64,000 bases of DNA from a plasmid. Made by a program: the position numbers and the translations under genes. The number at the start of each line of letters is the position of its first letter. Within the stretch, counting starts at the first letter, position 1. Below, piece after piece: positions 55,373-57,058 of this stretch. The DNA is taken from assembly GCF_053078305.1 (NCBI RefSeq), contig NZ_CP166875.1. One strand, 5' to 3'. Below the pieces are notes generated by a model that saw only the letters and a program-made list of their open reading frames with translations, had not been told where the DNA came from and did not search any database.

Positions 55373-55675
55373 ATGAGCGCATTTTCTTTTAACACCGCTT
55401 ATCAGCCAACAGGCGATCAGCAGAAAGACGCAATCGCACAAATCGACATCATGCAGAATCGTGCTGTTCAGGCAAATCTTGCATACCAGAGCAGCCTGGA
55501 TGCGGAAACGCTATTGAAACAGTTATGGCAAATCAATGATGAACTGGGGGAACTGTTGGATAGCGTGGAAAATCACACGCCAGTTATCAGAAAAAAAGCC
55601 AGTGATTTGAGCGCACTGATGATGCTTTTCAGCCAACAGGCCGGTCAGCCTATGACTATGTTGTTGATTTGTTAA
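55373..55675 (+). CDS. hypothetical leading-region protein (100 aa)
   Basis: ORF directly downstream of repeat copy 3. Confidence 0.45.
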   Translation: MSAFSFNTAYQPTGDQQKDAIAQIDIMQNRAVQANLAYQSSLDAETLLKQLWQINDELGELLDSVENHTPVIRKKASDLSALMMLFSQQAGQPMTMLLIC

Positions 55676-55830
55676 TGATAATCAGGGGCAGGAAATTAAG
55701 CGAAAGATGCTCTGCCCCGGGTTTGCAGCGACCGGAACGGTCACTCCACCCTTGTCGCGCTGTGGCCTGCGGCGGCTCCCGAAACTCAACCGATGATGGG
55801 GGCTGAAAACCAGAGAGAGGAGAAAGCAGG

Positions 55831-56118
55831 ATGAGTACCCGAAATATCCACGTTAACACCGCGTCGTACACGCTTCTTGTTGCCGGGAAGAAAAAAAACA
55901 CCGGGGAAGAGTGGGACGTCCTGGAATTCAGCAGCCTGACTGAGCTGAAAAAATATCGCAAAAGCCACCCGGAAAAGATGGCCTTCAGCTATAGCTACGC
56001 GCTCAGCCGGGGTGTGGATACGCAGTTCCGCCATATCAACATTGCGGAAGCCGATCACTTCAAACAGTTCCTGCGTCAGATTAAGCGTACCGGCCTCGAT
56101 ATCCGGGCGATCTGCTGA
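55831..56118 (+). CDS. hypothetical leading-region protein (95 aa)
   Basis: ORF downstream of truncated repeat. Confidence 0.45.
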   Translation: MSTRNIHVNTASYTLLVAGKKKNTGEEWDVLEFSSLTELKKYRKSHPEKMAFSYSYALSRGVDTQFRHINIAEADHFKQFLRQIKRTGLDIRAIC

Positions 56119-56236
56119 CCGGATGTGATGAATATCCCTCCTGATTGTTGCAATCTTGTTAATGGAGACCGGGAGGGATGATATTAAGCGGAAAAATTTT
56201 TTATTAAATTTATTCTTTCATAAAGGAGTAGCTGTT

Positions 56237-57058
56237 ATGCGATTAGCTTCCCGTTTTGGTCGGTATAATTCCATTCGCCGTGAGCGTCCTTTAACGGATG
56301 ATGAATTAATGCAGTTTGTGCCTTCGGTATTTTCCGGTGATAAACATGAATCCCGGAGTGAGCGTTATACATATATTCCAACAATCAATATCATCAATAA
56401 GTTACGTGAAGAAGGTTTCCAGCCGTTCTTTGCATGTCAGAGTCGGGTTCGGGATTTGGGACGCCGCGAATACAGTAAACATATGTTACGTCTTCGCAGG
56501 GAAGGGCATATTAACGGGCAGGAAGTTCCTGAAATTATCCTGCTTAATTCACATGATGGTTCATCCAGTTATCAGATGATCCCCGGAATTTTTCGTTTTG
56601 TCTGCACAAATGGTCTGGTGTGCGGAAATAATTTTGGCGAAATCCGCGTTCCACATAAAGGCGATATTGTCGGGCAGGTTATTGAGGGAGCGTATGAAGT
56701 GCTCGGTGTCTTTGATAAGGTCACTGAAAATATGGAGGCGATGAAAGAAATACATCTTAACAGTGACGAGCAACATTTATTTGGCAGAGCTGCACTGATG
56801 GTCAGGTATGAAGATGAAAATAAAACACCAGTGACGCCTGAACAAATAATTACTCCCCGTCGTTTGGAGGATAAACAGAACGATCTCTGGACAACCTGGC
56901 AGCGGGTTCAGGAGAATATGATAAAAGGTGGACTGTCGGGGCGAAGTGCCTCCGGTAAAAATACCAGGACAAGAGGCATTACGGGTATTGATGGTGATAT
57001 CCGAATCAACAAAGCATTATGGATGATTGCCGAACAGTTCAGGGAGTGGAAGTCATGA
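56237..57058 (+). CDS. conserved leading-region protein (DUF932-like, tentative)
   Basis: Start taken at MRLASRFGRYNSIRRERPLTDDELMQF with AAAGGAG upstream. Confidence 0.5.
   Translation: MRLASRFGRYNSIRRERPLTDDELMQFVPSVFSGDKHESRSERYTYIPTINIINKLREEGFQPFFACQSRVRDLGRREYSKHMLRLRREGHINGQEVPEIILLNSHDGSSSYQMIPGIFRFVCTNGLVCGNNFGEIRVPHKGDIVGQVIEGAYEVLGVFDKVTENMEAMKEIHLNSDEQHLFGRAALMVRYEDENKTPVTPEQIITPRRLEDKQNDLWTTWQRVQENMIKGGLSGRSASGKNTRTRGITGIDGDIRINKALWMIAEQFREWKS

Follow-up and report, generated by a model that had tools for sequence, protein, structure and literature searches.

What are the three genes that separate hok from gene X beside the origin of transfer (oriT) of an IncF plasmid, and what switches them on? 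IncF plasmids rank among the major carriers of antibiotic resistance, and success or failure of their transfer is decided in the first minutes inside a recipient. We addressed this question in 64,000 nucleotides (nt) of plasmid DNA (NCBI RefSeq assembly GCF_053078305.1, contig NZ_CP166875.1; this whole stretch is called the window), in which an earlier note had placed three open reading frames (ORFs) at 55373-55675, 55831-56118 and 56237-57058. These coordinates are borne out, with products of 100, 95 and 273 amino acids, as is the position of the ORFs between hok (54285-54446) and gene X (57356-57868, minus strand). With a probability of roughly 0.7, they constitute the oriT-proximal zygotic-induction operon of the IncF leading region. 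The locus is the already described Frpo1-ygeA-ygeB module of F-like plasmids, accompanied by a common alternative cassette; what is new here is the near-exclusive polymorphism between ygeA and the family of the first ORF, ORF1, ahead of a constant DUF932 gene.

The window from about 50 to 64 kb is a canonical IncF leading region, a reading supported by the gene context, psiB-psiA-hok on one side of the three ORFs and SLT-oriT-traM on the other. The nic sequence (Table 1) is one that we take to be F-like, after the F and R100 oriT. Because the nic motif and its nick lie on the minus strand, this is the transferred strand (T-strand), and it is the template for all three ORFs, whose distance from nic is 0.9-2.6 kb. 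Gene X enters first, followed by ORF3, ORF2 and ORF1 and then by the repeat that precedes ORF1. The three genes are thus not the first DNA to enter a recipient, as the earlier note had proposed: gene X, ahead of them, has the wrong orientation for early use, and F produces it no earlier than the conversion to double-stranded DNA. The 4.1-kb segment has matches in more than 5,000 plasmid records, for the most part conjugative IncF plasmids of Escherichia and Klebsiella. An Rfam scan returned no match between hok/sok and the traJ leader.

All three ORFs are real genes, as judged by their ratios of non-synonymous to synonymous divergence (dN/dS) and their Shine-Dalgarno sites. Purifying selection acts on each (dN/dS 0.07-0.31): the ratio is 0.23-0.31 for ORF1 against other alleles (dS up to 0.73), 0.29 for ORF2, the ygeA of F, against a Klebsiella homologue, and 0.07 for ORF3, the ygeB of F, against F itself. 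The Shine-Dalgarno sites are AGGAGG at 55363-55368 (ORF1), GGAG at about 55819-55822 (ygeA) and AAGGAG at 56223-56228 (ygeB). An upstream in-frame TTG start for ygeB at 56156 finds no support among the homologues, all of which begin MRLASRFG. YgeB is about 97% identical to its F counterpart and matches the whole Pfam DUF932 model (PF06067, aligned over positions 1-227 of a 227-position model; E = 4.2e-52; 177.6 bits, cut-off 23) as well as PHROG 12094 (E = 1.9e-138).

Full copies of a GC-rich, Frpo-type repeat occur three times in the window: at 45739-46364, at 49070-49726 directly before ssb, and at 54700-55372 directly before ORF1. A truncated copy precedes ygeA (55715-55830) and a partial, inverted one lies at 1485-1857. 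Folded as single-stranded DNA (ssDNA), the minus strand of 55000-55372 forms a single, imperfect hairpin about 320 nt long (-109.5 kcal/mol, z = -12.4), a stability reached by none of 100 shuffled sequences; the F Frpo1 region, which has been characterised by experiment, has the same fold architecture (z = -6.4). All three full copies have a -35-like hexamer, TTGACG, close to the base of the stem (55310-55305 in the copy before ORF1), and the exact core motif of the leader has three occurrences in the window, one each ahead of ssb, ORF1 and ygeA. In the truncated copy the left piece is fused directly to the invariant leader GAAACTCAAC.GATGATGGGGGCTGAAAAC and the ribosome-binding site, and as ssDNA this copy has no fold beyond chance (z = -0.69; 46 of 200 shuffles as good). 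The proposal that each gene follows a full or truncated GC-rich repeat therefore applies to ORF1 (full copy) and ORF2 (truncated copy) and fails for ORF3, which follows a 118-nt spacer of 36% GC without homology to the repeat.

Published work on F connects this architecture with early expression. A YgeA-sfGFP fusion, followed by microscopy, is made before the conversion of single- to double-stranded DNA, loses this early production without Frpo1 and is undetected in vegetatively growing donors (PMC9849209). The Frpo2-driven proteins of F, from ssb and psiB, appear simultaneously with YgeA, and gene X (YgfA) is produced only after conversion (PMC9849209), late because of its orientation, for which the T-strand is not usable as template. 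RNA sequencing of recipients depleted of donors found Frpo1- and Frpo2-regulated F transcripts enriched (PMC12672017). The ssi1-3 elements of the IncI1 plasmids ColIb-P9/pESBL are class 1 ssDNA promoters homologous to Frpo and express transient early genes from the T-strand (PMC12672017); their cargo differs from that of the window, the genes under zygotic induction being ssb, psiB and ardA.

Early post-conjugation transcript mapping, which the earlier note had put forward as a check, has thus largely been carried out in publications, for the orthologues. Its expectation of early expression is upheld for the F orthologue of ORF2 (PMC9849209) and agrees with the enrichment of Frpo1-regulated transcripts (PMC12672017); within the window, only ORF1 directly follows a functional-looking copy of the promoter. 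The reason that it gave, position, has to be given up: early expression is due to the hairpin promoter, which enters after the three genes, and Frpo2-driven genes are expressed at the same time. Consequences for transfer have also been published. Transconjugants fall from 92.6% for wild-type F to 3.9% when ygeA is deleted, an approximately 24-fold drop that is the worst loss among the F leading-region genes tested, and reach 25% without Frpo1, 14.5% in the Frpo1 ygeA double deletion and 33% in the Frpo1 ygeAB deletion; a deletion of ygeB only was not obtainable (PMC9849209). Since two of the three genes are named (ygeA/yubO and ygeB/yubP) and deletions at the locus have published phenotypes, the description of the three as uncharacterised is true for molecular function only.

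Taken together, these data favour a zygotic-induction operon that would work as follows. Starting at the nick, at about 57956, the minus strand would enter the recipient with its 5' end leading, and the repeat at 54700-55372 would then fold into its hairpin of about 320 nt, mimicking a duplex promoter of the Frpo1/ssp1a type. From there host RNA polymerase would transcribe ORF1, ygeA and ygeB up to the palindrome at 57056-57109, a likely bidirectional terminator between the convergent ygeB and gene X, and expression would end on synthesis of the complementary strand. A promoter and terminator scan of the plus strand detected nothing terminator-like in 55373-56237, and a single operon of Frpo, ORF1, ygeA and ygeB, with ORF1 and ygeB presumably co-transcribed with ygeA, is the most economical reading. 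The products would be short-lived establishment factors with the DUF932 protein YgeB as conserved core. Between the invariant leader and the spacer of ygeB lies a slot swappable by recombination, usually held by ygeA or an ORF1-family gene. The small proteins could stand in for one another, inhibiting or modulating either a host factor or YgeB, and YgeB could be an enzyme-like or metal-binding protein that acts on the incoming DNA or on a host barrier.

Several points weigh against this zygotic-induction operon. The best -10 candidate in a simple scan is weak, with 3 of 6 consensus positions, and transcription of ORF1 and ygeB from the hairpin in the present plasmid is a prediction. The junction between ORF1 and the truncated repeat can form an RNA hairpin (55676-55725, -17.7 kcal/mol, z = -2.5), which might attenuate read-through. 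With traJ disrupted in this replicon, the operon may seldom be used in it. Profile and fold searches assigned no biochemical activity to any of the three proteins. In the F genetics, loss of ygeA alone costs more than the Frpo1 ygeAB deletion does, and a deletion of ygeB only was not obtained; this suggests that YgeA and YgeB interact, which a model of independent inhibitors leaves unexplained.

The slot itself is best described by counts of plasmid records. An Frpo-ygeA junction is found in 2,321 records and a junction of Frpo with an ORF1-family gene in 1,597, while 71 carry both in tandem, as the window does; CP027377.1 and NZ_CP045714.1 are examples of the tandem form. The approximately 1,600 ORF1-family plasmids have the ORF1-family gene followed directly by the DUF932 gene, and the same YgeB, about 97% identical, stands behind either cassette. 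The slot has the leader as its left edge and, as its right edge, the point where the ygeB spacer starts. A remote relationship of YgeA to ORF1 was rejected (nothing by BLASTP; hhalign probability 0.4%), and a search for covariation of YgeB with the upstream cassette gave no signal beyond one Q95K change. Other F-like plasmids hold further small genes in the same interval.

Comparison with F places the window in this scheme. The Frpo1 (ssp1a)-ygeA-ygeB operon of F (Couturier et al. 2023, PMC9849209) contains the orthologues of the window's ygeA and ygeB, with protein identities of 99% and 97%, behind a homologous repeat of the same hairpin architecture, and is placed and oriented alike with respect to hok, gene X, oriT and traM. 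The window differs from F in having ORF1 directly behind the hairpin, with ygeA displaced behind the truncated, hairpin-less repeat; F lacks ORF1, and window segment 55377-55771 is missing there. The F leading operon is reportedly also credited to Masai and Arai 1997. IncFII/R100-type regions (for example NZ_CP095576.1, locus L025) have the other common arrangement: a full Frpo, a 98-amino-acid ORF1-family gene, DUF932, SLT and traM, without ygeA. Their small protein is nearly identical to the window ORF1 over the N-terminal 40 residues and 66-69% identical overall, and ends ...SRTDLI, whereas the window allele ends PMTMLLIC as the result of a deletion of about 30 nt that took out the ancestral stop.

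By its alignments, the window is a recombinational mosaic of ORF1-type and ygeA-type leading regions. Behind ORF1 come about 60 nt from the start of the ygeB spacer, and at about 55707-55715 the sequence passes abruptly into the truncated repeat; the rare combination of both cassettes would have arisen because a module of truncated repeat plus ygeA recombined into the spacer of an ORF1-type plasmid. A recombination breakpoint lies in the 118-nt spacer between ygeA and ygeB, because across 55831-57058, aligned to F (locus L001, 9033-10260), ygeA has a dS of 0 but the adjacent ygeB one of 0.16. Cassette boundaries at long conserved flanks fit homologous or illegitimate recombination. The repeat before ORF1 is 97.6% identical to the ssb-proximal copy and 93% identical to the copy at 45739-46364, and it is closer to F Frpo2 (94% over 54904-55373) than to the F Frpo1 region (82% over 54200-55376). 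The near-match within the window together with the closeness to Frpo2 points to gene conversion between two Frpo copies that lie about 5 kb apart and flank hok.

The family of ORF1 comprises 103 protein clusters, confined to Enterobacteriaceae plasmids and all annotated 'hypothetical'; it occurs in 1,783 PLSDB plasmid records and is full-length in about 1,700 plasmids. ORF1 has no match in Pfam, NCBIfam, PADLOC or the PDB, and a match to PHROG 17318 'transcriptional regulator' (E = 0.0019) was too weak to be used. Within the family, dS is 0.28 over codons 1-40 and 1.24 over the remainder. Other small leading-region proteins (locus L015, 1179-1580; locus L017, 3536-3907; Klebsiella-type sequences) share the N-terminal stretch MxTQNVNVKTAA.ESS and then diverge, as if a translation-initiation module had been reused by different cassettes. 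An equation of ORF1 with 'yubN' was ruled out, since in pS88 a 95-amino-acid ygeA/yubO homologue comes directly after the repeat; because pS88 has no ORF1-family gene between hok and yubO, the 'yubN' listed between flmC and yubO is probably an ORF inside the repeat. In pS88 (locus L026, 6964-7169) and similar RefSeq records, the PGAP annotation also places a pseudogene, "frameshifted single-stranded DNA-binding protein", within the Frpo repeat upstream of ygeA, which looks like an annotation artefact because repeat and leader are common to the upstream region of the real ssb.

The hairpin core has been lost precisely, between GGGTCCC and GAAACTC at the stem base, from the ORF1-family (orf98-type) locus L003 (4760-5010) and from about 124 PLSDB records, with leader and genes retained. 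The records were counted at a minimum of 95% identity; a count of 1,542 was inflated because split alignment pieces had been joined. Such plasmids may have lost the ssDNA-dependent induction of their oriT-proximal genes. A tie between hairpin loss and cassette type was ruled out, about 1,600 ORF1-family plasmids retaining the full hairpin.

As for what the proteins do, the profile and structure searches that the earlier note had suggested were run and assigned no function: profiles of NCBIfam, PHROGs and PADLOC and sequence searches of the PDB gave none for ORF1, YgeA or YgeB, and the BFVD viral structures returned only uncharacterised DUF932/DUF945/TIGR03299 phage proteins. Invariant His, Asp, Cys, Ser and Asn residues in the YgeB alignment, among them H37, C67, H106, D107, C123 and H140, suggest a catalytic or metal site. 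DUF932 is a large family (6,395 clusters at 50% identity) with relatives in 5,034 of 5,426 complete E. coli genomes (93%), mostly chromosomal, such as yfjQ, and it adjoins oriT or a relaxase gene in elements of Klebsiella, Rahnella, Serratia and Xenorhabdus. Apparent fusions of DUF932 to other domains were rejected as fragments of neighbouring genes (Ag43, a YfjP-like GTPase, TraI_C, RadC) and look like gene-calling chimeras. E. coli K-12 YfjQ (CP4-57) and YafZ (CP4-6) belong to the same UPF0380/DUF932 Pfam family and are of the same length, about 273 amino acids. Their neighbours are DUF905, antirestriction, RadC and CbtA/CbeA genes, of kinds that leading regions contain as well. Unlike ygeB, they are chromosomal, without Frpo, oriT or a small upstream cassette, and their DNA identity to it is about 67-70% over part of the gene.

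The strongest competitor holds that the small protein, YgeA or its ORF1-family counterpart, tempers an otherwise harmful YgeB as its antidote or regulator in a two-component module, so that the two would not be independent anti-host factors. This would account for the ranking of the F deletions, in which loss of ygeA alone (3.9%) is worse than loss of Frpo1 (25%), of Frpo1 and ygeA (14.5%) or of Frpo1 and ygeAB (33%), for the unobtainable ygeB deletion, and for the small gene that stands almost always immediately upstream of DUF932 in F-like plasmids. Several observations speak against it, however: nearly the same YgeB goes with ygeA or with the unrelated ORF1 family, no residue of it other than Q95K covaries with cassette type, chromosomal yfjQ is preceded by a GTPase gene and no small partner, and a Klebsiella plasmid has its YgeA-like gene about 2.4 kb from DUF932. 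No toxin-antitoxin or defence profile matched, and the adjacent genes contain no type II toxin-antitoxin domain of Pfam, NCBIfam or PADLOC; the F genetics are only suggestive. We regard the antidote as rather unlikely. The same tentative weight goes to a broader proposal, in which YgeA and the ORF1 family are unrelated, interchangeable partners of DUF932 in a two-component establishment module of plasmids, islands and phages, with DUF932 a new enzyme or metal-binding fold tuned or directed by the small protein. If it were true, the either/or distribution of cassettes over about 4,000 plasmids would be a natural experiment exposing such a module.

We find it improbable that YgeB is an anti-restriction protein of the P1 Hdf/DarA kind. 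DUF932 is the third-largest family enriched in leading regions and bears a tentative 'anti-restriction' label in a 2024 survey, where the last listed annotation column has a sole match, 1 of 4,661, to P1 Hdf (Samuel 2024, Suppl. Table 1). The similarity to Hdf was not reproduced at a meaningful level, and no similarity in sequence or fold to ArdA, ArdB/KlcA or DarA/Hdf was found. The occurrence of DUF932 in phages and beside antirestriction genes in CP4-57-type islands is in keeping with the label; a literature search found no experiment on protection of unmodified DNA from restriction in vivo. Least probable by our reckoning, and only slightly entertained, is a function at the DNA level, in which the Frpo hairpin would prime and pace the synthesis of the complementary strand, with the small ORFs, ORF1 especially, as dispensable passengers or annotation noise: the Frpo hairpin does delay complementary-strand synthesis as a replication roadblock and its transcripts can prime DNA synthesis (bioRxiv 10.64898/2026.01.09.698686), F and about 60% of these plasmids lack ORF1, and about 124 lack the hairpin core yet have the genes, but ORF1 is under selection, has a strong Shine-Dalgarno site and is widely full-length, and the effect of deleting ygeA exceeds that of deleting Frpo1, so the protein product matters.

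Overall, what the earlier note observed is mostly correct and its reading broadly so; early expression has already been published for the orthologues, and the locus has been described. The present finding adds no knowledge of what YgeA or DUF932 does, and the either/or pattern of ygeA and the ORF1 family offers a concrete complementation experiment for that question.

Table 1. Features of the leading region and of its partial second copy in the window
Feature	Coordinates	Strand	Description
Full Frpo-type (class 1 ssDNA promoter) repeat	54700-55372	-	673 nt, GC-rich; hairpin core ~55040-55330 on T-strand; plus-sense transcription toward oriT
Invariant leader GAAACTCAACAGATGATGGGGGCTGAAAAC and AGGAGG ribosome-binding site of ORF1	55324-55372	+	columns invariant across 5 repeat copies
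ORF1	55373-55675	+	100 amino acids; unnamed family
Spacer remnant	55676-55714	+	first half of ygeB upstream spacer, carried with ORF1 cassette; aligns to ORF1-to-DUF932 spacer of locus L009
Truncated repeat	55715-55830	+	57-nt left piece 55715-55771, leader and ribosome-binding site 55772-55830; hairpin core deleted
ygeA (yubO, ORF95)	55831-56118	+	95 amino acids; 94/95 residues identical to F YgeA; same synteny as F
AT-rich spacer	56119-56236	+	118 nt, 36% GC; ygeB ribosome-binding site; conserved right boundary of variable slot; no repeat homology
ygeB (yubP, ORF273, 'F gene 32')	56237-57058	+	273 amino acids; DUF932/UPF0380
Palindromic hairpin	57056-57109	.	perfect 25 bp, between convergent ygeB and gene X; RNA fold -37.9 kcal/mol, z = -10.4
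Gene X (ygfA/yubQ/orf169)	57356-57868	-	SLT lytic transglycosylase; Pfam SLT
oriT nic region, GCGTAGTGTGT then GGTGCTTTT	57948-57967	-	motif search; nick between the two parts, between 57957 and 57956
traM	58279-58662		after oriT; then traJ leader with FinP
hok/sok-type toxin locus	54116-54446	+	hok 54285-54446, Pfam HOK_GEF; Rfam sok RF01794, 95 bits; upstream module boundary
ParB-like gene	50603-52561	+	followed by psiB, psiA, hok and the three ORFs
IS66 tnpC	59057-60670	-	
IS66 tnpB	60701-51	-	
IS66 tnpA	61048-61473	-	
ParB-like fragment			inverted partial region
ssb	810-1337		inverted partial region
Partial Frpo-type repeat	1485-1857		inverted partial region
DUF1380 gene	2229-2648		inverted partial region
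Antirestriction gene	2695-3339		inverted partial region

Beyond the three ORFs, the window differs from F in that its traJ is interrupted. An IS66-family element splits the gene (window 58856-61996), with TraJ residues 1-60 encoded at 58856-59017 and residues 62-206 at 61568-61996; traA, traL and traE follow from 62425 on. Self-transfer of the present plasmid is therefore probably impaired unless TraJ is given in trans, and its entry into recipients may be rare.

A gene of about 109 amino acids lies between DUF932 and the SLT or relaxase gene in F-like or mobilisable elements of Klebsiella and Serratia (locus L015, 4855-5184; locus L008, 8606-8935; locus L019, 2088-2414); the window is without it. 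At the far end of the window, positions 1-3343 hold a second, partial leading region in inverted orientation (Table 1); its identity of 90-97% with 44253-51055 points to a cointegrate or mosaic replicon. The third full repeat copy, at 45739-46364, is without the exact leader motif. About 500 nt downstream of it, in the region 46876-49089, are genes for a DUF3560 protein (453 amino acids), a small methyltransferase (187 amino acids) and an 80-amino-acid ORF, which fit the methyltransferase operon reported to be early-induced in F and pESBL.

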